Of a stretch of 64,000 nt of DNA, positions 30,541 to 62,888 are shown in pieces. The stretch covers positions 32,001 to 96,000 of the forward strand of contig JAWBQR010000006.1 of the NCBI GenBank assembly GCA_038845265.1. The letters are read 5' to 3'. A program made the translations under genes and the position numbers. This DNA is from Nitrososphaerota archaeon (GTDB lineage Archaea; Thermoproteota; Nitrososphaeria_A; Caldarchaeales; Calditenuaceae). The notes beneath the pieces are model-generated. The model worked only from the letters and a program-made list of their open reading frames with translations, had not been told where the DNA came from and searched no databases. Every line of letters starts with the position of its first letter. Within the stretch, counting starts at the first letter, position 1.

Positions 30541-32539
30541 ATACCTCGGCGATATCTAGGACCTGCATTTTATTTAATCCAACCATCTTGGCAGCATCCT
30601 CAAGCATTAGGAGGCAGAAGGGGCACTCCACTACTAAAACCTCGGCACCCGTCGTAGCAGCCTCTTCAATCCTAAATATGCTTTCCTTCTTTATTCTTTT
30701 GATCTCGAACCAGAAGTTACCACCGCCGCCCCCACAGCAAAAAGTTTCTCTGCCATGTCTTTTCATATCTATTAATTTTGCATCTCTAAGAGCCATCCTC
30801 GGCTCTTTGATTATGCTGTTAAATCGTGAAAGATAGCAAGAATCATGTAATGTCAACTTAACAAAGTTCCTTAATCTTAATTTTCCACTATTCACTAGCA
30901 TATTTAGAAGTTCAGTGTGATGAATAACTTTCAGACTCAAACCTAGATCTTTATATTCATTTTTAAAAATATTATAACAATGCGGACAATGAGTCAGTAT
31001 TTTTCTATCAGAGAATTTATTCAATAGACCAATGTTTTGATATGCAAGTTCTTGAAATCTACCTTCTTCACCAATTCTGCGGGCAGGATCTCCTGTGCAG
31101 TTTTCTCCAGGACCAATAATGGCAAAACTCACACCACATTTAATCATAACTTTTATAAGAGACTTAGCTACCTTACGTATTCTCTCATCACAAAGAGCCA
31201 TGCATCCAAGCCAATATATGTATTCAGCTTCGGGATACTCATCAATAGTTTTTGCTCCGATTGCCTTTAGCTCCTTAATTGCTGCTTCTTTGTATGATCG
31301 TGGAAGACCGTATGGATTCTGAGTGCGAGCCAGGTTTGAAAGTATTCTTGTAACATGTCTATCTAGTTTTCCCTCGGATGCTATTGCTCTCCGTGCTTCT
31401 AATATATATTCAAGTGGATTAATCATGACTGGGCAGGAATCAAAACATGCACCACAAGTCGTGCATGCATAAATCTCTTCGAGATTAAGTATTCCAACAT
31501 TAAATAAATCCTCACTAATCGAGGATAAATGCTGTTGCACGGAGCGAAGCTTCTGAACTAGATTCCTTGGCGAGAGAAGAGTTCCGGAAGCAGTAGCTGG
31601 ACATGCCTCCTCACACCTTCCGCAATCAGTACATGCATCAATGGCAAGTCTTTGTAGAGGCGCAAGATCGACTACTTTTTTAAATCCAACTTTTATTTCA
31701 ATATCTATTTTGTCGAGGATTTCTGTCAATCTAAAAGGAGTAGCAGGTATGTAAAGTACTGGTTCTCTAATACTCATATATGATGCATTAAGCGCTCCTA
31801 AAACGGTATGAAGTATATTTGTAAATGGAGCAACTGCAAGCAATGAAAAAGCAGCTAATGCATGAATCCACCAAATTGACTGATATGCAACAATGATTAT
31901 CGTTTTCTCAACTATAGTTGTCTTTACAACTTCAGATATTAAATATCCAATAAAAGAATATCTTGACCAGTGTACACTGGTTAGGTAGAGTCTGAACCCT
32001 TCAATTATAAAACCTGTTAAGCATATGAAAATCAAGATATAAAGTATCGCAAGGTGTTCTTTTTTCATTCTTAATCTTTTTAACCTTGATCGTCCTACTC
32101 TTCTCTTAATTGCAATAATCAAACCAACTATAAGTAGTACTCCGAAAAAATCGAGTAAGAATTCATATAACAAATAATAATTACCTATTAATAATTTGAT
32201 TTTAAATAAACTTAATATATTATCATCAATAAAAATCAATATAGTTCCTAGAAAAAGCACGAATATACCATACATTATCATTATGTGCATTATGCCGCTC
32301 TTCCTATCCCACAGCAGCTTCACTTGCAACAATACATTTTTTATGAGAGAAGAAAAATTAATTAATCTTGGATTAAAAAGTGATCTAATTGCATTCATAC
32401 CTCCATACGTCTTTAACCTAAGATAGATGCCATAGAGAAAGACTGAGAAAAATGGTGCTAAGACTAGGTAAATAACAAGTCCCGTCCCGCTAGGCATTAA
32501 TCCAAAGCTTTCCCTAAATGGCGTATATAGATCCTCCAT
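30527..32539 (-). CDS. Membrane Fe-S oxidoreductase of FadF/EtfD/EMO type (heme-b TM domain, 2x[4Fe-4S], two CCG domains)
   Basis: TM region with His (IMHIM, WIHAL, ILHT); CTDCGRCEEACP and CTTCGACFDSCP; CTG…CPHC and HDSC…CCGG…CPFC; adjacent to etfBA. Confidence 0.85.
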   Translation of the reverse strand: MEDLYTPFRESFGLMPSGTGLVIYLVLAPFFSVFLYGIYLRLKTYGGMNAIRSLFNPRLINFSSLIKNVLLQVKLLWDRKSGIMHIMIMYGIFVLFLGTILIFIDDNILSLFKIKLLIGNYYLLYEFLLDFFGVLLIVGLIIAIKRRVGRSRLKRLRMKKEHLAILYILIFICLTGFIIEGFRLYLTSVHWSRYSFIGYLISEVVKTTIVEKTIIIVAYQSIWWIHALAAFSLLAVAPFTNILHTVLGALNASYMSIREPVLYIPATPFRLTEILDKIDIEIKVGFKKVVDLAPLQRLAIDACTDCGRCEEACPATASGTLLSPRNLVQKLRSVQQHLSSISEDLFNVGILNLEEIYACTTCGACFDSCPVMINPLEYILEARRAIASEGKLDRHVTRILSNLARTQNPYGLPRSYKEAAIKELKAIGAKTIDEYPEAEYIYWLGCMALCDERIRKVAKSLIKVMIKCGVSFAIIGPGENCTGDPARRIGEEGRFQELAYQNIGLLNKFSDRKILTHCPHCYNIFKNEYKDLGLSLKVIHHTELLNMLVNSGKLRLRNFVKLTLHDSCYLSRFNSIIKEPRMALRDAKLIDMKRHGRETFCCGGGGGNFWFEIKRIKKESIFRIEEAATTGAEVLVVECPFCLLMLEDAAKMVGLNKMQVLDIAEVFDLE

Positions 32540-48010: not shown

Positions 48011-50323
48011 TTAAACTATTTCCAATAATTTAAGAATGAATGCCTGACCAGCTGATATGCATCCGTCATTCGGGGGGAGTCTTTTACTCATTTTGAGGAT
48101 TAAACCGGAGTTTTTTAAGGACGATTCAATTCCTTGAATAATGTACTCATTTACGGCTGCACCACCACTAACATAAACAACATTACTTCCATAATTAAGT
48201 GCTTCTTCTAGTGCTGCATTGCCAAGTAGTTTCCCAATAATTAATTGTGCAGTGTACGCAATATCTTGACTTTTCGTATTATCTATCAGATCGACTAATT
48301 GACGAATTATCTCCGTCGAAGGAATGATTCCATCCTTGTAGTTAATTAGGTCTGAAGTTAATAGTTTAATTTCTCGCCCATTACTAGCATGTTCTTCAAG
48401 CAAAATTGCTGGTTCACCCTCATATGTACGCTCTTTACATAATTGCAAAAGGACAGAAACGCTATCAAGTACTCGGCCGGTGCTAGACGTTAATTGTCCC
48501 CTTCCAGATTTAGCCAAAGATATACATTGTTGGAACTCTTCGAAGCCGTGGGGAAAATAATGAATTAATCCTCTTCTCTCGAATAATCTTACGATTTCTT
48601 CTTCACTCAATATTTTGCTTAGAATTGATACAAGCATTCTAGCCGGATATTTAGTAGCTAGGTCTCCTCCAGGCATAATTTGATACTCGAGATGAGCTTT
48701 TCTTTCAATTTTTTCAGAATCCCATGTAAGTATCTCGCCTCCCCAGATTGCTCCATCCTCGCCATATCCTGCACCATCAATCGTTATTGCTACAGCTGGT
48801 TCATCAATGTCGTGTAGATTATCAAGCATGGCTGATGCCATATGCGCTTTATGATGCTGAACTTTGATTAGCTCCGATCCATATTTATTACTCCAATTTT
48901 CAGCAAGAAGAGAAGAACTATAAAGAGGATGTAAATCAGAAACTATGATTGCGTCTTTTGGATTGATTTTGTAATAATTACATAACCTATAGAGATATTT
49001 CTCAAGGTCCTTATAACACTCGTATTCATCAACATCGCCGATATATTGTGTAGGAATTATTTTGTTGTCTATCGCTATCGCGCCCGTGCTCTGTAGATCT
49101 GAGCCGAATGCGATGACAGGTCTACTGAATCTTAGATTAGTTTCTATCCATCTAGGCGCATACCCTCTCCCTCTTCTTAAGAATACTGCCTCGCCCCTAG
49201 TAAACCTAATGACTGAGTCATCAACTCTGTTTATTATACGTCTATTATGTACTAGGAAATAGTCTGCCACACTTGTCAACTTCTTTAAATCCTCTTCACC
49301 AATTATCATGGGATGACCAGTAGGGTTTCCGCTTGTCATTATTGCAAATTTATCCTTAATATTCATCAATAAGAGATAATGAAGCCCCGTATATGGTATG
49401 AAAACTCCCAAGGTGTTTAGTCCTGGTGCTACTAAAGGAGAAACATTAGCATCAGCAGTCCTAGGCAGAATTAATATCGGTCTCTCATAACTCAGCAGTA
49501 ATTTCTCAGCCTTATCATTTACCAAAACAAGTTTTTTTAAAATCTCAAGATTTAATGCCATTATAGCGAAAGGCTGTCTTGGACGATGCTTTCGGAGGCG
49601 TAGCTTTAAGACAACCTCGTCATCAGATGCTAGGCATGCTAAATGGTAGCCTCCAATGCCTTTGACAGCCACGATGCATCCTTCATTTATCAGTTTGGCG
49701 GTTTCAAGAATAGGGTCTCTGACATTTAGCAATTTTAAATCGTTGTCAAGTAGATTTAGTCTCGGCCCACAATATGAACAGCTGATTCCCTCTCCGTGGA
49801 ATCGTCTTATATCTGATACATTATTATATTCTTCAATGCAGCTGGGACATAGCGGGAATTCTTTCCAACTAGTGTTATCTCTATCGTAGGGTATACTTTC
49901 AATGATAGAATACCTTGGACCGCACCATGCACATGAATTAAACGCATATGCATATCTCCTATTTTCTTTGTCGAGGATCTCTTTTAGACACCACTCACAG
50001 ATACTTATGTCTGGAGGAACTTCAGAAATGAGGAGGGAGTCTGAAGAACTTTTATGAATAGTAAATTCATTGAAGTTGTTTGGTTTCGCGTCATTAATTA
50101 TTATTTTTTCTATCTTTGCTGTCGGAGTTATACCTTTTTCTATGGATTTGATGAAAAGTTCAACTTTTCTGTCTTCACCCTCTACCCAGATCTCGACTTC
50201 TCCTCCACCCAGGTTTTTTACATATCCATTTACTCCTACACTTAATGCGAGACGAGTGATGGCGGGTCTGAATCCTACACCCTGAACAACGCCAGTGACA
50301 GTTATTCTAACAGCCCTTAGCAT
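48011..50323 (-). CDS. hypF: [NiFe]-hydrogenase maturation carbamoyltransferase HypF
   Basis: GVVQGVGFRP acylphosphatase domain, zinc fingers, AVKGIGGYHL, QHHKAH, DGAGYGEDG.IWGGE, PPNDG. Confidence 0.96.
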   Translation of the reverse strand: MLRAVRITVTGVVQGVGFRPAITRLALSVGVNGYVKNLGGGEVEIWVEGEDRKVELFIKSIEKGITPTAKIEKIIINDAKPNNFNEFTIHKSSSDSLLISEVPPDISICEWCLKEILDKENRRYAYAFNSCAWCGPRYSIIESIPYDRDNTSWKEFPLCPSCIEEYNNVSDIRRFHGEGISCSYCGPRLNLLDNDLKLLNVRDPILETAKLINEGCIVAVKGIGGYHLACLASDDEVVLKLRLRKHRPRQPFAIMALNLEILKKLVLVNDKAEKLLLSYERPILILPRTADANVSPLVAPGLNTLGVFIPYTGLHYLLLMNIKDKFAIMTSGNPTGHPMIIGEEDLKKLTSVADYFLVHNRRIINRVDDSVIRFTRGEAVFLRRGRGYAPRWIETNLRFSRPVIAFGSDLQSTGAIAIDNKIIPTQYIGDVDEYECYKDLEKYLYRLCNYYKINPKDAIIVSDLHPLYSSSLLAENWSNKYGSELIKVQHHKAHMASAMLDNLHDIDEPAVAITIDGAGYGEDGAIWGGEILTWDSEKIERKAHLEYQIMPGGDLATKYPARMLVSILSKILSEEEIVRLFERRGLIHYFPHGFEEFQQCISLAKSGRGQLTSSTGRVLDSVSVLLQLCKERTYEGEPAILLEEHASNGREIKLLTSDLINYKDGIIPSTEIIRQLVDLIDNTKSQDIAYTAQLIIGKLLGNAALEEALNYGSNVVYVSGGAAVNEYIIQGIESSLKNSGLILKMSKRLPPNDGCISAGQAFILKLLEIV

Positions 50324-51372
50324 ATCCTTGGAACCGGATCACCAATAGGCGGAGGAATGATTCTTTTACCACCAATAGTTGTCTCTAAAATTACACCTTT
50401 AAATGAATCGGTAACGTATCCGATTATACTTGCTTGGCTCCAACCTGAATTCTTAATTGATTCAAGAATTTCTTCGGCCTTATCGTTTATGACACTCATT
50501 ACAACCTTTCCTTCGTTTCCAACCTCAAGTATGTCGATGCCTAACAATTCAGACGCTGCCTTAGCTGCTGAACTTATTGGTAATGCGTCTTCTCTAATGA
50601 CGAATCCGAGCCCTGTATTTTCTGCCCACTCATTTAACAATCCAGCAAGTCCTCCCCTTGTCGGGTCTTTTGCGCAAGTAACGCCGCCGACCTTCAATGC
50701 CTCTCTCATCAATTTATTTAGAGGGGCTACGTCTGATTTTACGTCTGATTTAAAGCCCAATTCTCCACGCGCAGCAAGAATTGCTACTGCATGGTCGCCG
50801 AGGGGGCCATTCAAAATTATCTTATCTCCAGCCCTAATGTTTTTAGTTATAAGCCACATCGAGGAATGGTCATCCCTACTTCTCTTAATTATTTCGTAGT
50901 TTTGCATTAATTCTTGGCCGGGTACCCCTATGCCGGAACAGTTAATCAAGAGTTTATCGACTCGGCCCTTCTCAACTACTTTTGTATCACCAGTAATTAT
51001 TGAGGTTTCTGCCTCAAGAGCTGCCTCCCTCATGCTGTTTAAGATCTTTTCAATATTGGAAATCTCAAACCCCTCTTCGATTATTAAGCCGCAAGATACT
51101 CCAAGAATTTTTGTTGCTCCTTTAACTGCTAAGTCATTAATTGTTCCGCACACAGCCATCCTACCGATATCGCCTCCTGGAAAGAATAGTGGATATACAG
51201 TGTACGAATCAGTTGTAAATGCTATACCGTTAACAATTGCTGAATCTTCAAGGAGATAGAGAGGTACATCAATATTCCTGGATAAATCACCAAAATATTT
51301 TAAAACATACTTATGAATAAATTGCAGCATATATTTTCCGCCCGCGCCGTGAAGCATTGTAACATTATTCAT
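50317..51372 (-). CDS. hypE: Hydrogenase maturation carbamoyl dehydratase HypE
   Basis: HGAGG, TTDSY…FFPGGDIG, GDTKVV, DPTRGG, C-terminal PRIC. Confidence 0.96.
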   Translation of the reverse strand: MNNVTMLHGAGGKYMLQFIHKYVLKYFGDLSRNIDVPLYLLEDSAIVNGIAFTTDSYTVYPLFFPGGDIGRMAVCGTINDLAVKGATKILGVSCGLIIEEGFEISNIEKILNSMREAALEAETSIITGDTKVVEKGRVDKLLINCSGIGVPGQELMQNYEIIKRSRDDHSSMWLITKNIRAGDKIILNGPLGDHAVAILAARGELGFKSDVKSDVAPLNKLMREALKVGGVTCAKDPTRGGLAGLLNEWAENTGLGFVIREDALPISSAAKAASELLGIDILEVGNEGKVVMSVINDKAEEILESIKNSGWSQASIIGYVTDSFKGVILETTIGGKRIIPPPIGDPVPRIC

Positions 51373-51378
51373 TGTTGA

Positions 51379-52191
51379 TCACTTATTCTTGGGTTTAGAA
51401 ATAAACTGTTCAAGCGCCTTAGCAAAACCTTCTGGAAGCTCGATGGACTCCGTTAAAGAGGTATCGGTACATACTCCGACAGTGTAAATATCAGCTGCTA
51501 GCTTATTAGAAGTTTTATTCCAGACAAAATTGCGGAACTTCACATGTTTTCTACCTATTTCTTCAACCCAGACAATTACTTCGATCTCATTGTCCAACCG
51601 GACTGGAGAGAGTATTTTTCCCCCCGTCTCGACTGTCGGTATGAAACGGCCGAATTTATGTATCAGTGTTGAGTATCCAAACCCAACGCTTGCTAATAGC
51701 TCTTGTTGACACCGCTCACAGAACTTGAAATAATTAGTATAATGCATAACCTGTAAATAATCCGTGTCTGAAAGAGATATTTTATATGTCCTTTTGAAAG
51801 CATTGCTAGGAATTTCTAACTTATCTTTTGTATCAACTTCATCATCTTCGTTTATATCTTTACCTACCCCCTCAATGTTTTGGGCATCGAGGCCAAGACT
51901 TGATAATAATTTTTTAAAATCCGCCATAGCTTTAGAACTCGCTTCCTCAGGGCTAAGCCCCATTTCTCTATAGTTTATTTCTGCTAACTCGGAATACAGC
52001 GCCAAATTTGTCGCTACATCTTTAGGGTCCATTTTTCCAATTATAACTCCTGCGTGAACCATTACAAAATCATTTATATTTACATCGTCTATCGCCAATA
52101 GAGCTTCCCTGACTACGCCTCCAAAATCTATCTTGGCTATTTTATTTTCATTATCAATTTCTAAAACTTTACCAGGTGCTCCCCAACACAT
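51379..52191 (-). CDS. hypC: HypC chaperone fused to a YbgC/4HBT-like hotdog thioesterase domain
   Basis: N-terminal MCWGAPGKV…DFGGVVRE…VMVHAG (HypC); C-terminal YKISLSDTDYLQVMHYTNYFKFCE…SPVRLDNEI (4HBT family); one continuous 270-aa frame. Confidence 0.88.
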   Translation of the reverse strand: MCWGAPGKVLEIDNENKIAKIDFGGVVREALLAIDDVNINDFVMVHAGVIIGKMDPKDVATNLALYSELAEINYREMGLSPEEASSKAMADFKKLLSSLGLDAQNIEGVGKDINEDDEVDTKDKLEIPSNAFKRTYKISLSDTDYLQVMHYTNYFKFCERCQQELLASVGFGYSTLIHKFGRFIPTVETGGKILSPVRLDNEIEVIVWVEEIGRKHVKFRNFVWNKTSNKLAADIYTVGVCTDTSLTESIELPEGFAKALEQFISKPKNK

Positions 52192-52194
52192 ATC

Positions 52195-53421
52195 TTATTC
52201 CCCTTTATTGATTAGTGAATTTTTAATGTCTCCATGTTTTGCCCATACATTACATGTCCCCTCAATCGATACCATGCATGGTCCCCACGGTGTCTCGGGC
52301 GTGCATGATTTCATAAATAGTGGACAATCTGTTGGTTTGGATATTCCGAGCACTACTTCCCCGCATCTACAGTTAGGAGGCAAATCGTACTTCCCGGGCT
52401 CTCCGAAATGCGCATGAGTCATAACATACTCAGAAGGTGAAGCGTCAGGTATACCAAAATACTCAAAGGCATCATAGATCTTCCTGAAATCTTCTCGAAA
52501 CATTAATCCACTTCTCGCTATCATGCCAATCCCCCTCCAGGCGGCGTATGTGGGCTGAAAAACCTCATTCACCATTTTTTTTACATAAGAGTTACCATTA
52601 GGTTTAACTAACCTTTTGTACTCGATTTCTAGTCTTGGTTTTTGGTTATCAATCATTTTAAGAATTGTTGCGATCGCCATTAGTATATCTATTGGCTCAA
52701 ATCCCGTAACAACGGTTGGGAGACCGAAGTTTTCAGGAAGAAATCGCCACTCATAACCGCCAATGACGGCCGAGACATGTCCAGGCGCTATGACCCCCAT
52801 TATAGGGAGTAATCCTCTTTCCTTGTACAGCTTTACAGTAAACTTCATCGCTGGCGGAGTGAGACGTACAAGACTCATGAACTTAAGGTTGGTTGGTACC
52901 TCTCCCTTATAAAAGAAGAAGCCGTAAATAGGTAAAATTGTCTCAAAGCCTATTCCGAGAAATATGCTTTCCTTTTTATGTGTTTTTGCGTCTTTTATGG
53001 CGTCAAAAAATGAATAGACAACTTTGACTTCAGCGCCCAGGGACTTTGCTTCATAAAGAGATCTTGCTGGTGTTTTAGGCCTACTTGAAGGAAGCCTAAG
53101 TGCATCGCCATATGTATAAATAGTATATCCTTCAAGTGCAAGCTTAATAGACATATCTATGTAGTTTGACGGCACTACGCATACTGGGCAGCCTGGACCG
53201 GCTACAAGCTCTATGCTTCGTGGCAATAAGCTCCTCAATCCATAATGCGTTATAGCCCATTCATGCGTACCGCAGAAATGCATTATCTTAATTAATGAAT
53301 TATTTTCGAATTGTTTTTTCATGATTTTCTCTGCATATTTTTTGATTATTCCAATTAATGATGAAGCAAGTTCACGGTTGCTTCGAAATATATCCTGAAC
53401 AGTTCTCAGCTCTGGTTGCAA
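52195..53421 (-). CDS. hypD: Hydrogenase maturation protein HypD
   Basis: CGTHE, GPGCPVCV, GFET, PGHVS, CRCGEV…CPLF…GPCMVSIEGTC. Confidence 0.96.
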   Translation of the reverse strand: MQPELRTVQDIFRSNRELASSLIGIIKKYAEKIMKKQFENNSLIKIMHFCGTHEWAITHYGLRSLLPRSIELVAGPGCPVCVVPSNYIDMSIKLALEGYTIYTYGDALRLPSSRPKTPARSLYEAKSLGAEVKVVYSFFDAIKDAKTHKKESIFLGIGFETILPIYGFFFYKGEVPTNLKFMSLVRLTPPAMKFTVKLYKERGLLPIMGVIAPGHVSAVIGGYEWRFLPENFGLPTVVTGFEPIDILMAIATILKMIDNQKPRLEIEYKRLVKPNGNSYVKKMVNEVFQPTYAAWRGIGMIARSGLMFREDFRKIYDAFEYFGIPDASPSEYVMTHAHFGEPGKYDLPPNCRCGEVVLGISKPTDCPLFMKSCTPETPWGPCMVSIEGTCNVWAKHGDIKNSLINKGE

Positions 53422-53897
53422 TTAATATGGTCACCTCTTCTAGTAATTTTCATAATGATGTCAAAAACATTCTTTGTAATTGAATCCAATTTTTCGGAAA
53501 TTTCTAGTGAAATATTATCTCCAATTGTATATGGATCTTTTGTTTCAATTGCAATTATATGTATAAAGTTAGGACGAAGTAATTCTAGTGCATGGATAGC
53601 CATCAAGGCTTCAGGAAGTCCTGCATAATGAGGTGAAAACACAGACATGGATTTCATTAAATCCCCATCCAGTTCGTATACGTGTCCTACTGGATGTTTG
53701 TTGCTTCTTATACCATCAACTATTATGACCATGTCGTAGCCGTGAATGTAATCTAGTAATGAGAGTCCTGTTTTTTCTAAGATATGCGTATCAATACCCA
53801 TTTTTTCTAGTTCTCCCATCAGACGTTTCCCTACTTCTATTCCTACGGCATCATCCCTGTAAATAGGATTACCGAGGAATAGAACGACTACTTTCAC
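53406..53897 (-). CDS. Hydrogenase maturation endopeptidase
   Basis: LGNPIYRDDAVG, IIVDG, SPH. Confidence 0.9.
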   Translation of the reverse strand: MKVVVLFLGNPIYRDDAVGIEVGKRLMGELEKMGIDTHILEKTGLSLLDYIHGYDMVIIVDGIRSNKHPVGHVYELDGDLMKSMSVFSPHYAGLPEALMAIHALELLRPNFIHIIAIETKDPYTIGDNISLEISEKLDSITKNVFDIIMKITRRGDHINCNQS

Positions 53898-53903
53898 AGC
53901 CGA

Positions 53904-55364
53904 TTATAAATTATGCCGAACTACATTAAGTAGTTTGCCATTCATGTCATAAATGTATACAGCTAGTGGCATATTCCCCGGCAGTGAATGAGTTCCACAC
54001 GCATGGCATGGGTCATAGGCCCTAAACGCCATCTCTATCATGTTTAATATACCTTCATTTATCTGGCCTTGTCTGATCAATTGTTTTGCTGCCTTATCAA
54101 TTGATAAGGCAATTCTTGCAGCATTGTTTTGTGTAGCGACTATGAGATTAGCCTGTTTAACTACTCCACGTTCATCAGTTATGTAGTGATGTATTAATGT
54201 GCCTCGAGGCGCCTCAACGACTCCCATACCTTCACTTGGTTGATCTTTAGGAATATTTCTTATATTTTGATCAGTTATATCAGGATCATTTGCTAATTCC
54301 TGAATTCTTTCTGCTGCATAAATCATCTCTATCACCCTTGCCCAGTGGTTTGCGAGAGTGTGATGAACAGGTCTACCAATCATCGAAATCATTTCCTCAA
54401 ATGCTGATTGTGCCTCATGTGTAGGTAATGATTGAGAAACATTAAGTCTCGCAAGGGGTGCTACACTATATATCCCGCTATCTTCTCCATCAATGAATCC
54501 TTTCCAACCTATTTTCTTTAGGAAAGTGAATTTAATATATGTCCATGGCTCAACATGTTCTCCAACATATTCTAAGTACTGATGTACATCAAATTTAGCA
54601 AATTCATTACCCTTTGGGTCGACTACTCTTATTTTTCCATCATAGAAGTTGAGCTGGTTCTTCTCATCAACTAAACCCATATAATAGGTTCTATGTGTAT
54701 ATGCATCGCTAGTTATAAGATTGAAGTATTGGTCATTACTTAATACTAGAGTTTTAAACAGCTTCATGGTAAATTTTGCAAATTCTACAGACTCTTCTGC
54801 TACTTGTTTTATTTTTTCTAACTCATTATTTTTTATTGGTCTTGAGACTCCGCCAGGCACTCCTGATACTGGATGGATTGTTTTACCACCCAGCATTAGA
54901 TTTATTTCTCTAAGTTTTTTACGAATTGATATAACTCTTAGCACATTTTCTTTACCAACCTTGTTAATTACTCCCAGTATGTTTCTTTCTTCTTTAGGTG
55001 AAGTCGGTCCAACTATGAAATCTGGTCCTCCTAATATATAGACGTGGAGAGCGTGGTCTTCAAGCATGAATATGTTATACATAAGTTCTCTAATCTTTCT
55101 GGCAGTCAGTGTTGGAGGGCAATTATAGAGGTCATCAAGCGTTTTCGTAGAAGCCATGTGATGCGCCATAGGGCAGACACCGCATATCCTAGCAGTGATT
55201 TGCGGCATGTCCTCGACTGCCCTTCCCTCGGCAAATTTTTCAAATCCCCTGAGTTCTGGTATTTGGATGTATGCTCGGTCCACGTTTCCAACATCATTTA
55301 TAAATATGATTATCTTCCCATGTCCTTCAAGCCTAGTTATTGGGTCAATTACTATTTCTCTCAC
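53904..55364 (-). CDS. mvhA: Group 3c [NiFe]-hydrogenase large subunit (MvhA-like)
   Basis: ITRLEGHG, L1 RICGVC, EAPRGTLIHHY, L2 RAYDPCHACGTH followed by a cleavable C-terminal extension. Confidence 0.93.
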   Translation of the reverse strand: MREIVIDPITRLEGHGKIIIFINDVGNVDRAYIQIPELRGFEKFAEGRAVEDMPQITARICGVCPMAHHMASTKTLDDLYNCPPTLTARKIRELMYNIFMLEDHALHVYILGGPDFIVGPTSPKEERNILGVINKVGKENVLRVISIRKKLREINLMLGGKTIHPVSGVPGGVSRPIKNNELEKIKQVAEESVEFAKFTMKLFKTLVLSNDQYFNLITSDAYTHRTYYMGLVDEKNQLNFYDGKIRVVDPKGNEFAKFDVHQYLEYVGEHVEPWTYIKFTFLKKIGWKGFIDGEDSGIYSVAPLARLNVSQSLPTHEAQSAFEEMISMIGRPVHHTLANHWARVIEMIYAAERIQELANDPDITDQNIRNIPKDQPSEGMGVVEAPRGTLIHHYITDERGVVKQANLIVATQNNAARIALSIDKAAKQLIRQGQINEGILNMIEMAFRAYDPCHACGTHSLPGNMPLAVYIYDMNGKLLNVVRHNL

Positions 55365-56347
55365 TTTCTCACACTCCTGAGAATATTTCTTAAGCCTGAT
55401 TTTGGAAGCGAGTATTTGTAAATTAAACCTAAAATGTCCGGGAGCTTTGAGATTTCTTTTCTTATTTGTTCTTCATCTTCGAGATCTAGTATACTGCCAA
55501 GGAAGGATATCGCCTTTCCTCCATAATCATGAATATTGTCAAGTGGTCCGAAGCAGCCTGTGCAGGGCATGTTAGCTTTAATGCAGAGCGCACTGCATCC
55601 TCCTCTCGTCACAGGACCTAAGCAGGGCAATCCTTGAACTAGGAGACACTGATTTGGGTCAGGCACGAAGTGGACTACTCGTTTAAATTCTTTAATTAAT
55701 ACATTCTCTGGCTTTGTATCATTAAGCGGACATTCATTGCATAACGATTTGTTGCTGGCTCCTATCACTGAGCCCTTGCTGGGAAGCTTTCCTGATAATA
55801 ATATATTGATCGCTTCCCAAGTAACTTCAGGTGTTGGTGGACATCCAGGCACGTAATAATCTACGGTAATAACCTCGTCAAGAGGCTTGAGGCTAGGTAA
55901 AAATTCTGGTAAATCAATTTTAGCACCATTGATTTCTACAGGGCGAGTCTGGGAAGGTATTATTTTCTCAGGATTAACAGTAGTGGGCGTAGTTATATAG
56001 GCCCTTTCAAGTATCTCCTCTCGTCTATAATTGTTTGCTAGTCCAGGAATTCCTCCCCAACATGCACATGCTCCATATGCCACGACGAACATAGATTTTC
56101 TCCTCAGCAATTTTACTATCTTCTCATGTTCGGATAAACGAACACCGCCATTAATGAAGCTCACAGTTATTGAATCATCTGGCATAGCCTCTATGTCCGG
56201 GATCTTGAAGTCCATGGCGACAGGCCAAAACACGATATCGACAAGATTAACCACATCTAAAATTTTCTCACCTAAGTCTACTACTGCTTCTTCGCATCCA
56301 CCACAGCTTGCGCACCAATAAAATGCAACTTTTGGACGTATACTCAT
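55361..56347 (-). CDS. mvhG: [NiFe]-hydrogenase small subunit (MvhG-like)
   Basis: CASCGGC, GACA..GG, PGCPP, CNEC…CL…CLGP.TRGGC…C…PCTGC.GP. Confidence 0.93.
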
Positions 56348-56772
56348 ACGGCTTCGACCTCTAATTTGACTGGGCCTAATCTTTTCAGATCTCTAACCAT
56401 TTCATTTACTACTTGTACCCACTTATTTGCTTCCGATGCTGATATCCATTCAAGTCTGAATCGCTCCTTTTCGATTCCTAATTCCTCTAACAATCTTCGG
56501 AATAAGCTATAACGTCTAAGTGCCTTTATGTTTCCACTAATGTAGTGACAATCAGAAGGTGGATGGCAACCGGCTACGATTACACCATCAGCACCCTGCT
56601 CAAATGCCGCGAGGACGAATTGTGGATCAATACGTCCAGAACACATGACTCTGATAACTCTCACATTTGGCGGATACTGCATCCTACTAGTTCCGGCTAG
56701 GTCAACAGCAGCATAGGTACACCAATTACAGGCGAATACAACAATTTTAGGCTCGTAGTCATTAGAGCTCAT
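56344..56772 (-). CDS. mvhD: [2Fe-2S] adaptor subunit MvhD
   Basis: [24 protein letters not shown]…GCHPP.DCHY, WISASE. Confidence 0.95.
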
Positions 56773-56773
56773 T

Positions 56774-58714
56774 TTAGTCACCTTTTATTAATGCCAAAAC
56801 TTGAGCTAGTACCTGTCTGTCCTTAAAGCTATACTGCTGCATCGCTCCTGATGGACATGCTGCAGAACAAGTACCGCAACCCATGCATAATGCTCTCTCG
56901 ACGTAGGCAATCATTCTTCCATTAATTTCTTTGAGTGAAATAGCCTTATATGGACATAAGCCCACGCAGATCCTACAACCACTACACAATTCATCATTTA
57001 CGGTGGCTACAAATGGTTCAGTCTTGACTTTTCCTTTTGATAAGAGAGCAGCCGCCTTAGAAGCAGCGGCACTTCCAGTTCTAATACTCTCAATAATGTT
57101 TTTTGGCCCAGTAACTGACCCTGCTAGAAAGATGCCTTGGGTAGGAGCTTCTACTGGATTAAGCTTGAGATGCGCTTCTCTGAGAAATCCATCTGTGCCA
57201 CAACTAGCTCTGGTAACTGCAAGTAGGTCTATAAGATCCCTTCTCGGAATCATACCTACCGATAAAACGATTAAATCTACCGGTATGCTTATTTCTTCCT
57301 GAATAGTGACTTCATATACGTCAATTAAAATTCCTTCAGGGCCAATGTCCACTACTGGGGGTTCCTCAAATTTGATGAACTTAATGAGATGCTCTCCGGC
57401 CCTCTCATAAAGACTTTCATCATTTCCATAAGTATTGATGTCTTGGTAAAGAATAAACACATCTGTTTCAGGATACTTTTCTTTTATTTTGATCGCATTT
57501 ATCAATGTAGATGTGCAGCACATCCTTGAACAATAACTCTTAGAATTGGGCGTTGTATTACGCGAGCCTACGCATAATATAAAAGCGATTCTTTTAGGTA
57601 TCGTTCCTCCTATTATTAATTTTCCCTGAGTTGGGCCGTCTTTATCTAAAAGTCTCTCTAGCTGGAATAGCGTAATTACATTATTATGAAGACCATATGC
57701 ATATTCGCCCTTTGGTGGAATGTATGGATCATATCCAGTAGCTATGATGAGTGCTCCAACATTTAAATCCAACAATTTAGGTTGCTCAGATAAATCGATT
57801 GCATTAAACCTACATGCTTTTACGCACTCGCCACACTTGATGCAGACTCTTTGATCTATAACATACATGAGTGGATAGGCTGTCTTAAATGGATAATAGA
57901 TGGCTTTTCTTCTTGATAATCCATATTGATACTCATCTGACAATTCGATTGGGCACTCAACTTCACATTCTCCGCACAAAATGCATTTTTCATTTATATA
58001 CCGCGGATTTATTCTGATTTTTGCTTTAAAGTTGCCTGGAAAACCACCAAACTCGATTAGTTCAGAATTTGTGAATACGTGGATCTTTCTATTCTCTGCA
58101 ATTTTGTTAATTAAATTATTTACTACATCGGCACCTCTTCTATCACTTTCAAGCCATCCGGTTAGGGCGGCTCTCCCCCCAAGCGTGGGGCTTTTCTCAA
58201 CTAAATAAACTTCAAATCCATATTCCGCAAGGTCAATTGCAGCCCTCATTCCAGCGACGCCACCGCCAAGCACCAAAACGGCGGGATATGTCTGAAACTC
58301 TGTCTCTTCCAATGGTTCTAGGAGAGCGGCCTTGGCAACAGCCATCCTAATTAAGTCCATAGCCTTCTTAGTGGCTGCTTCTCTATCAGAATGAGCCCAT
58401 GAGCAATGCTCCCTGATATTTGCCATTTCTAATAAGTACTTATTCAGTCCTGCACTTTCTATGGCGGACCGGAATGTAGGTTCATGCATTGAGGGTGAGC
58501 AAGCAGCAACTACAACTCTATTCAAATTATGCTTCTTTATCTCTTCCTTTATCAATTCTTGGCCTACAGTTGAGCACATAAACACATAGTCGTGACTCAC
58601 TATAACATTCGGAAGTTTCTTTGCATATTCACTGACTGTTTTAACATCTACTTTTGAGGCTATGTTATGTCCACAATGACAGATAAATACTCCAACCCTA
58701 GGCTCAATACTCAT
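56774..58714 (-). CDS. hdrA: HdrA-family FAD/Fe-S subunit, full length (QmoB-like position before mvhD)
   Basis: [32 protein letters not shown], inserted and C-terminal 2x[4Fe-4S], CVGSR, CSRMCC. Confidence 0.9.
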
Positions 58715-62480: not shown

Positions 62481-62888
62481 ATGCATGAATTCACCGTAGC
62501 AATGGGGATTGTAGATTCATTAAAAGAATTATATTTAAACAAGGGTTTCAAGATTAATAGTTTCAAGATAGTTATCGGTGAATTATCGATGTTTAATCCA
62601 AGCATAATTAATGATCTTGTTAGAGAATTAATTAAGGAAACAGAATTAGAAAACACTAAATTTAAAGTAATTATTGAGGAAGCAAAAATCAAATGTGAAT
62701 CATGCAATGAAACTCACAGCTTTAATGAACTCTCAAAACAGTTAAGTGAGGAAGAAAAAGAGATGATTCATTTTATTCCTGAATTAATTTCATCATATAT
62801 GAAGTGTCCATCATGTAGTAGTAGAGATCTAAAGATTATGAGTGGGAGGGGAGTAAAGGTGATTGACATTGCGTTGCAAAAACGATAA
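62481..62888 (+). CDS. hypA: Hydrogenase nickel metallochaperone HypA
   Basis: MHE N-terminus, IGELS, CESC…(EMIHFIPE insertion)…CPSC, SGRG. Confidence 0.93.
   Translation: MHEFTVAMGIVDSLKELYLNKGFKINSFKIVIGELSMFNPSIINDLVRELIKETELENTKFKVIIEEAKIKCESCNETHSFNELSKQLSEEEKEMIHFIPELISSYMKCPSCSSRDLKIMSGRGVKVIDIALQKR

Follow-up and report, generated by a model that had tools for sequence, protein, structure and literature searches.

The 64,000-nucleotide window analyzed here (positions 32,001 to 96,000 of contig JAWBQR010000006.1, assembly GCA_038845265.1, from a Nitrososphaerota archaeon of the Calditenuaceae) contains a hydrogenase and maturation operon of nine close-packed minus-strand genes, the seventh of which (51379..52191 in window coordinates) encodes the maturation chaperone HypC fused to a YbgC/4HBT-class hotdog thioesterase (TE). 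The operon order is HdrA-like, MvhD-like, [NiFe]-hydrogenase small subunit, large subunit, HycI-type protease, HypD, HypC-TE, HypE and HypF, with hypD ending 3 nt upstream of the fusion gene and hypE starting 6 nt downstream of it. The fusion gene is a single uninterrupted frame of 270 amino acids plus a stop codon, in which Pfam recognizes HupF_HypC at residues 1-65 (E-value 1.4e-17), 4HBT (PF03061) at 147-230 (5.3e-8) and 4HBT_2 (PF13279) at 140-260 (2.3e-7). All three matches exceed the curated cut-offs (64 bits against 28.5 for HupF_HypC, PF01455, of which model positions 1-64 of 65 are aligned), and the NCBIfam HypC model TIGR00074 scores 42.8, under its cut-off of 48. The initial annotation, made from the sequence alone, had described a HypC continuing in one frame through a linker into a YbgC/4HBT-type domain between hypD and hypE, and the frame, the Pfam matches and the motifs present (the M-C start, DFGG, VMVHAG and SDTDYLQVMHYTNY) bear this description out. 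In public databases the fusion proteins are named either HypC-family chaperone or acyl-CoA thioester hydrolase.

From its N terminus the protein consists of the HypC domain, a helical linker, a disordered linker and the TE, and its AlphaFold2 model (49 homologues, mean predicted local distance difference test score, pLDDT, of 85) shows a beta domain at residues 5-54, helices at 56-76 and 81-98 and a compact domain at 132-263. The HypC domain (residues 1-65; 51997..52191, minus strand, as are all parts of the gene) starts with M-C-W-G and has its modeled beta strands within 5-54. Cys2 is present in 45 of the 49 aligned rows, the other four being gapped or truncated, and His46 in 49/49; the N-terminal cysteine and the histidine of the V-H-x-G motif are residues that we take to be important for HypC. 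The family profile matches Thermococcus kodakarensis HypC (2z1c) at 9e-15 over the first 69 positions and Escherichia coli HypC (2ot2) at 1.2e-6. Next comes the helical extension (residues 66-104; 51880..51996), to which the two modeled helices are assigned and which has a mean pairwise identity of 39% in the 49 sequences, with N62, G78 and L99-G100 conserved. The acidic linker that follows (residues 105-127; 51811..51879) is variable, at 18% mean pairwise identity, and its pLDDT falls below 50 at 110-123.

A lost stop codon or a misassembly had been allowed for in the initial annotation. Independent contigs cross the fusion region without indels, and the HypC-TE junction is therefore real and was not created by the assembly: in an independent metagenome run (X11), a contig of 4686 nt recovered 50800-53000 with 9 substitutions and 0 gaps, and contigs from two further studies span the TE and the linker, again with no indels. 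Runs from eight studies hold the stretch, those holding most of it being labeled hot-spring metagenomes. Parts of the TE are also covered by contigs of a single RNA library, which does not establish transcription.

The remaining operon genes, all on the minus strand, could be assigned by Pfam. The hypD gene is of the fusion-associated type (52195..53421; 408 aa, HypD at 3.6e-117). Downstream of the fusion lie hypE (50317..51372; AIRS and AIRS_C, with a C-terminal PRIC motif) and hypF (48011..50323; Acylphosphatase, zf-HYPF, Sua5_yciO_yrdC and HypF_C), whose products are only 40-42% identical to their Hadarchaeota counterparts. Upstream of hypD we found the maturation endopeptidase of the HycI family (53406..53897; HycI at 1.4e-7), the [NiFe]-hydrogenase large subunit (53904-55364; NiFeSe_Hases) and small subunit (55361-56347; Oxidored_q6) and, at the operon head, an MvhD-like gene (56344-56781; FlpD at 9.5e-56) and an HdrA-like gene (56774-58714; Fer4 and Pyr_redox_2 families). 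The hypA gene lies on the plus strand about 4 kb beyond the operon head (62481..62870; PF01155) and is the sole above-cut-off match in the genome. In that genome (1.37 Mb, 93% complete) the fusion provides the only HupF_HypC match and the only 4HBT_2 match. The same genome holds two [NiFe]-hydrogenase large-subunit genes, the second of them outside the window in a 417-aa frame (G000:C8:57380-57586), so that one fused HypC presumably serves two hydrogenases in this organism. Across 11 genomes tested, the fusion was the sole HypC match in 10, namely the window's own and 9/10 other carriers. In the exceptional carrier, G048, a second hypC is spread across two neighboring frames (G048:C18:12436-12626; profile positions 1-40 and 42-65), which points to a copy with a frameshift or an error in sequencing.

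Distribution of the fusion and conservation of its thioesterase

The fusion is not peculiar to this assembly, a possibility that the initial annotation had kept in view. A large protein collection yielded 43 protein clusters showing the complete domain arrangement (42-99% identity), and with one genome taken per species, all 24 genome loci encoding a relative were found to be full-length fusions, as were 16/16 further metagenome loci. As labeled, the carriers comprise the window's genus (Nitrososphaeria), Hadarchaeota, a 'Geoarchaeota' metagenome-assembled genome (MAG), Desulfurococcales, Sulfolobales and Thermoproteota MAGs. An apparent Asgard occurrence, in a 1.1-Mb MAG labeled Hodarchaeaceae (L015/G048), was not retained as such; its HypD nests among those of Hadarchaeota, and the MAG is listed among the relatives of a Hadarchaeum genome.

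When the TE part alone was searched against 1.84 billion representative sequences, 4 matches were obtained at E-values of 1e-30 or below, all of them fusions. Below these, identity falls to 40% in a free-standing 153-aa protein and then to about 32% in ordinary 4HBT_2 proteins. The TE is thus a distinct subfamily, almost confined to HypC. Only two doubtful cases of a free-standing TE were encountered, P0044 and P0047; P0044 is a 152-aa protein holding the TE only, at 63% identity, whose locus could not be located and which may be either a split gene or a gene-calling artefact. The initial annotation had also envisaged unfused thioesterases clustering with hyp genes, and no such orthologue occurs in the 24 genome loci or the 16 metagenome loci. 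Weak free-standing matches in the window's relatives (21-30% identity) were discarded as hyp-linked candidates, as they lie on other contigs, 18 kb from hypCD or in genomes devoid of hypD. Related 4HBT_2 domains do enter other fusions (P0064, P0103 and P0138), of a response-regulator receiver with a TE and of a cytidylate kinase with a TE, which are unrelated to hydrogenase maturation.

Linkage of the fusion to hyp genes, the absence of which would have told against the initial annotation, is common: hypD lies directly upstream of the fusion in 14/24 loci. In the ten loci without an adjacent hypD, labeled Sulfolobales, Desulfurococcaceae and Thermoproteota, hypD was located elsewhere in the genome in 5/5 cases tested. 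These same ten loci (L023:213-4505, L031:2480-6813, L024, L026-L030, L034 and L035) share another neighborhood, with the alpha, beta and gamma genes of a 2-oxoacid:ferredoxin oxidoreductase, an acyl-CoA-forming enzyme, within 1-2 kb of the fusion; the assignment was made by Pfam on L023 and L031 only and by matching open reading frame sizes in the other loci. Two further, unassigned frames go with the fusions there, one of about 200 aa that matches thioredoxin weakly and one of about 380 aa; the genes are arranged co-directionally in two of the loci and divergently in the rest. As the loci form one related group, this neighborhood may reflect a single event.

The TE (residues 128-270; 51382..51810) is the best-conserved part of the fusion protein. 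In the 49 sequences its mean pairwise identity is 64.5% against 50.7% for the HypC domain, and 28/135 of its columns are invariant against 6/65. In the AlphaFold2 model it has a pLDDT of 84-97, and Foldseek aligned it with the YbgC-type structures 5v10, 1s5u, 5kl9, 5t06 and 4k00 at template modeling scores (target-normalized) of 0.83-0.90, with an E-value of 2.6e-11 to 5v10; 5v10, 1z54 and 1s5u were its sequence matches in the Protein Data Bank (PDB). Its D142-T-D144 motif falls on the D-T-D of 5v10 in the alignment, and Asp144 is present in 49/49 rows, together with the other invariant residues Y145, L146, Q147, V148, H150, Y151, C158, E159, R160, H178, R198, D200 and D243. As the invariant Asp144 sits at the DTD-motif position of YbgC-type enzymes, where we assume the catalytic aspartate of YbgC to lie, we infer that the TE is probably catalytically competent.

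Joint inheritance with HypD and loss of the thioesterase

The HypD encoded next to the fusion in the window is 56-61% identical to the fusion-adjacent hypD products of other lineages and 51-55% identical to the unlinked hypD products of five Sulfolobales-labeled carriers, and only 48-50% identical to the HypDs of its own family, whose genomes have ordinary short HypCs. In a tree of 44 HypDs, the 20 from fusion genomes formed one side of a branch (ultrafast bootstrap, UFboot, 86; Shimodaira-Hasegawa-like approximate likelihood ratio test, SH-aLRT, 57) found in 90% of the bootstrap trees, and the HypD of the window's genus fell in a 100/98 clade with Hadarchaeota-type HypDs, apart from the own-family ones. 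From this grouping of fusion genomes across phyla it follows that hypD and hypC-TE travel as a pair and that they entered the window's genus laterally.

Fusion-type HypDs carry two insertions, both of which are missing from the solved T. kodakarensis HypD and from the HypDs of fusion-less members of the window's order. Insertion 1 (residues 197-207, K-L-Y-K-E-R-G-L-L-P-I; 52801..52833, minus strand) adds five residues and lengthens the helix at 188-202. Insertion 2 (residues 332-343, Y-V-M-T-H-A-H-F-G-E-P-G; 52393..52428, minus strand) is modeled with a pLDDT below 50 and stands eight residues before C351-x-C353, which is invariant and belongs to the CxC/[4Fe-4S] domain of HypD.

The two insertions differ in what they accompany, as became apparent from genomes in which HypC is unfused. 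The relatives of Hadarchaeum fall into three classes: 7 genomes have the fusion, 7 encode a 'long' HypC (96-115 aa) in which the two-helix extension is retained and the chain ends before the TE, and the rest have a short HypC of about 70-86 aa. Two more long HypCs were found among relatives of the Desulfurococcales-type carriers, one of which (G100) is close in sequence to a neighboring fusion, giving nine loci in all (L074-L080, L082 and L100), in each of which hypC lies downstream of hypD. Insertion 1 is present in all TE and long-HypC HypDs, the latter all bearing x-E-R-G-L-L-P, and in two short-HypC relatives (L081 and L083), and was not seen in other HypDs or in 2z1d; the helical extension and insertion 1 may form a contact of their own, independent of the TE. 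Insertion 2 tracks the TE itself. Its motif [YF][VIA]xTxA is intact in 20/20 distinct TE genomes and occurs in 0/9 long-HypC genomes and in none of the aligned short-HypC HypDs (20/20 TE rows and 0/33 others in the HypD tree set). Among the seven Hadarchaeum-related long-HypC genomes, the insertion keeps its length with a degenerate sequence in two (L074 and L075), is deleted in L077, whose HypD is sister to that of a fusion genome (SH-aLRT 97), and is replaced by shorter unrelated sequence or none in the other four.

A quick tree of 53 HypDs, drawn after removal of seven rows that duplicated genomes already included and of fourteen distant, near-identical rows with a short HypC, placed the long class at three to four positions nested within the fusion clade, the joint TE and long clade having an SH-aLRT of 90. 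The simplest reading is that the TE was lost repeatedly, at least 3 (on starred branches) to 4 times, without replacement. No 4HBT_2 gene was found anywhere in the nine long-HypC genomes (0/9), and no TE-like gene lies downstream of the long hypC, where the neighbors are TATA-binding protein, ThiS, P-type ATPase, GDT1, glutaredoxin and KaiC-like genes. By comparison, 15 of 16 further carriers have exactly one 4HBT_2 match, the fused TE, and G049 has the fused TE plus two fragments on short contigs. On the same tree, 4/4 independent contrasts on starred branches (five when all branches are used) run in the same direction. On the same reading the HypD loop was freed from constraint at each loss of the TE, which argues that the insertion-2 loop and the TE work together. 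The losses also bear on dispensability, which the initial annotation had coupled with a lack of hyp linkage as grounds for abandoning its reading; the TE does appear dispensable in places, its losses numbering at least three to four, but its linkage to hyp genes holds.

Possible roles of the thioesterase

We propose, at roughly even odds, that the TE is an accessory thioester-cleaving module of the HypCD scaffold. The N-terminal domain would act as an ordinary Fe(CN)2CO chaperone pairing with HypD, being the organism's only HypC, and the disordered linker would tether to it an intact-looking YbgC/4HBT-class hotdog TE, which would cleave a thioester at the scaffold. The TE would most likely engage HypD at insertion 2, just ahead of the CxC/[4Fe-4S] redox domain. 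The interpretation offered in the initial annotation, that an acyl-CoA-binding domain on HypC could channel a CoA-thioester-derived CO or C1 unit to HypCD or gate maturation by acyl-CoA status, which would be a new maturation route, survives in part, namely in its architecture, its place in the hyp operon, its conservation and its tie to HypCD, to which the HypD grouping and the tracking of the loop both point. It does not survive as a universal or essential route, given the losses of the TE.

Several observations weigh against the proposal. The activity of the TE, its substrate and its contact with HypD are all things that we infer; a complex prediction of HypD with HypC(1-104) and TE(125-270), with the TE as partner, returned a score of 0.00, the tool's 'no answer' output, and weighs on neither side as regards binding. 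The NCBIfam YbgC/FadM model TIGR00051 scores the TE at 50 against a cut-off of 68.7 (TIGR02799 gives 46.6 against 141), and the loop past the aspartate reads Y-L-Q in place of the x-G found in three aligned structures (GG in 5v10, MG in 1z54 and QG in 2egi). Because of these sub-cut-off scores, the altered loop and the lack of a Tol-Pal context, the TE is to be considered a member of the 4HBT/YbgC hotdog superfamily and not a YbgC orthologue; with Y-L-Q standing in place of x-G, its chemistry may differ from acyl-CoA hydrolysis and its acyl pocket from that of ordinary YbgC enzymes. On the side of HypD, support for the branch joining the fusion-type proteins is only moderate (86/57), the contrasts number only 4-5, for which the floor of a sign test is p = 0.125, and the insertion-2 columns were themselves retained in the alignment behind the HypD tree. 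The non-fusion HypDs came from three archaeal groups and one solved structure, and the loop could occur elsewhere without the TE. Finally, TE-loss lineages retain hypD and a linker-bearing hypC, so that close relatives do not depend on the TE for [NiFe] maturation.

Which thioester would be cleaved is a more speculative matter. Our preferred candidate, though on balance doubtful, is a thioester of a formyl or small acyl group, the carbonyl of which would be handed to the iron site of HypCD or processed there. The initial annotation had stated that the CO ligand's source in anaerobes is unresolved, in agreement with a 2025 review whose accessible text still calls it so and raises formyl-CoA as a candidate (PMC12134894). 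The same text speculates about an enoyl-CoA-hydratase-like motif in HypD and notes the co-purification of AccB, a component of acetyl-CoA carboxylase, with HypCD (PMC12134894), and a formyl or acyl thioester would fit with all of these points as far as they are presented there. A supply of formyl-CoA by family III CoA-transferase, a family that includes formyl-CoA transferase, was considered and rejected, as the enzyme shows no association with the fusion: the window's genome has a single gene for it, and the family occurs in 7/16 other TE genomes, in 0/7 Hadarchaeota TE genomes and in 1/9 TE-loss genomes, a distribution that counts against the proposal as well.

In such a scheme the TE would be a conditional add-on for CO-ligand supply, comparable to the aerobic CO-ligand synthase HypX in role and not in fold. 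As the TE can be lost, it is at most an enhancer for certain conditions or lineages and no universal anaerobic route. The most specific version, which we regard as unlikely, has it do in anaerobes what HypX does in aerobes: sitting on the HypD loop beside the redox-active CxC/[4Fe-4S] domain, it would cleave a formyl or other small acyl thioester, and the carbonyl would pass to the iron that HypC Cys2 and HypD hold between them. If true, an enzyme that supplies the CO ligand of [NiFe]-hydrogenase under anoxia would have been identified for the first time, with lineages that lost the TE falling back on a general route.

Alternatively, the TE could serve proofreading or protection, stripping unwanted acyl adducts from scaffold thiols or lowering the local acyl-CoA concentration around them, with no part in CO supply. 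An N-terminal cysteine, being a free amino-thiol, reacts with thioesters, and the thiols concerned would be HypC Cys2, the HypD cysteines and the C-terminal cysteine of HypE, their protection mattering most at high temperature. The tethering of an intact-looking TE beside Cys2, its link to HypD, the hot-spring origin of the runs holding most of the stretch and the hot habitats of the archaeal groups that, going by record titles, carry the fusion would all suit this explanation, as would the dispensability of the TE in some lineages, which is what one expects of a safeguard. A general safeguard, however, would be expected more widely among thermophiles, and most thermophilic relatives have a short HypC; acylation of HypC in vivo is itself hypothetical, and a TE conserved to such a degree, with a HypD loop dedicated to it, points to a specific reaction carried out in a set position. 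We consider protection improbable.

A structural role, in which catalysis is irrelevant and the TE oligomerizes or stabilizes HypC-HypD at high temperature, or plays a regulatory part, with bound CoA or a bound nucleotide as the signal, has less to commend it. Hotdog domains form dimers or tetramers and YbgC-type enzymes are oligomeric, depositions of related solved thioesterases contain 2-12 chains per sequence, the TE provides the most conserved surface of the fusion protein, and the HypD loop could be its docking site. A structural module would not need Asp144 and the D-T-D-Y-L-Q-V-x-H-Y motif to be invariant in 49/49 sequences, as they are, and this makes the explanation quite unlikely. 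Least credible of all, an accidental joining of HypC to a housekeeping acyl-CoA thioesterase, with no tie to hydrogenase maturation, would account for the fused TE being the sole 4HBT_2 match in the window's genome and in 15/16 other TE genomes, where it could act as a general thioesterase, and for the gene lying away from hypD in 10/24 loci, but it is disfavored because the subfamily is found only fused to HypC (24/24 and 16/16 loci), is inherited with a special HypD whose loop it tracks, and was not replaced after its loss (4HBT_2 in 0/9 genomes), so that no housekeeping need is apparent.

Should the TE indeed cleave thioesters at the HypCD scaffold, HypD and HypC-TE would make up a defined two-protein system for thioester-dependent assembly of Fe(CN)2CO, for which sister lineages offer natural minus-TE controls, and a concrete lead on the origin of the hydrogenase CO ligand. 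Even without a role in CO supply, the co-varying loop marks a surface of HypD to which the literature and the tools searched assign no function.

Comparison with known maturation and thioesterase systems

No description of a HypC-thioesterase fusion was found in the literature searched, subscription journals lying outside its coverage. One candidate description, PMC12727194, was set aside, since its accessible text lists only an alpha/beta-hydrolase cluster. New in the present analysis are the conservation of the TE, its co-inheritance with HypD, the HypD loop that tracks it and its repeated loss without replacement.

The N-terminal part of the fusion resembles the HypC/HybG/HupF chaperones (T. 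kodakarensis 2z1c and 3vyr-3vyu; E. coli 2ot2) in its Met-Cys start, OB-type (oligonucleotide/oligosaccharide-binding) beta domain, conserved histidine, following helix and hypD neighbor. Known HypCs have 70-100 residues; the fusion runs on through an additional helical stretch and a disordered linker into an enzyme domain of 140 residues, and its HypD has two insertions whereas the solved T. kodakarensis HypD has neither. HupF of Rhizobium leguminosarum is reportedly a HypC paralogue with a C-terminal extension and an extra maturation role; that extension is said to be short and to hold no enzyme domain, unlike that of the fusion.

With the YbgC/4HBT thioesterases (Pseudomonas aeruginosa 5v10; E. 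coli YbgC 1s5u, 5kl9 and 5t06; the dihydroxynaphthoyl-CoA, DHNA-CoA, thioesterase 4k00) the TE shares the hotdog fold, the D-T-D motif, the H-Y-x-N-Y helix start, the E-R pair in the helix and P-x-R-x-D. It differs from them in sequence (21-28% identity), in having no Tol-Pal context and Y-L-Q for the usual x-G, and in its extra invariant residues Cys158, His178, Trp208 and Asp243.

The likeness to HypX is one of role only. HypX converts formyl-tetrahydrofolate to formyl-CoA and then to CO, according to the accessible text of the review cited above (PMC12134894). As presented there, it is an accessory, patchy and dispensable addition to the Hyp machinery that works through CoA-thioester chemistry, and on the side of the TE the parallel would be a functional analogy. 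HypX is built from a formyltransferase and a crotonase-type domain, neither of which is present in the fusion, and has no homology to the hotdog-HypC architecture.

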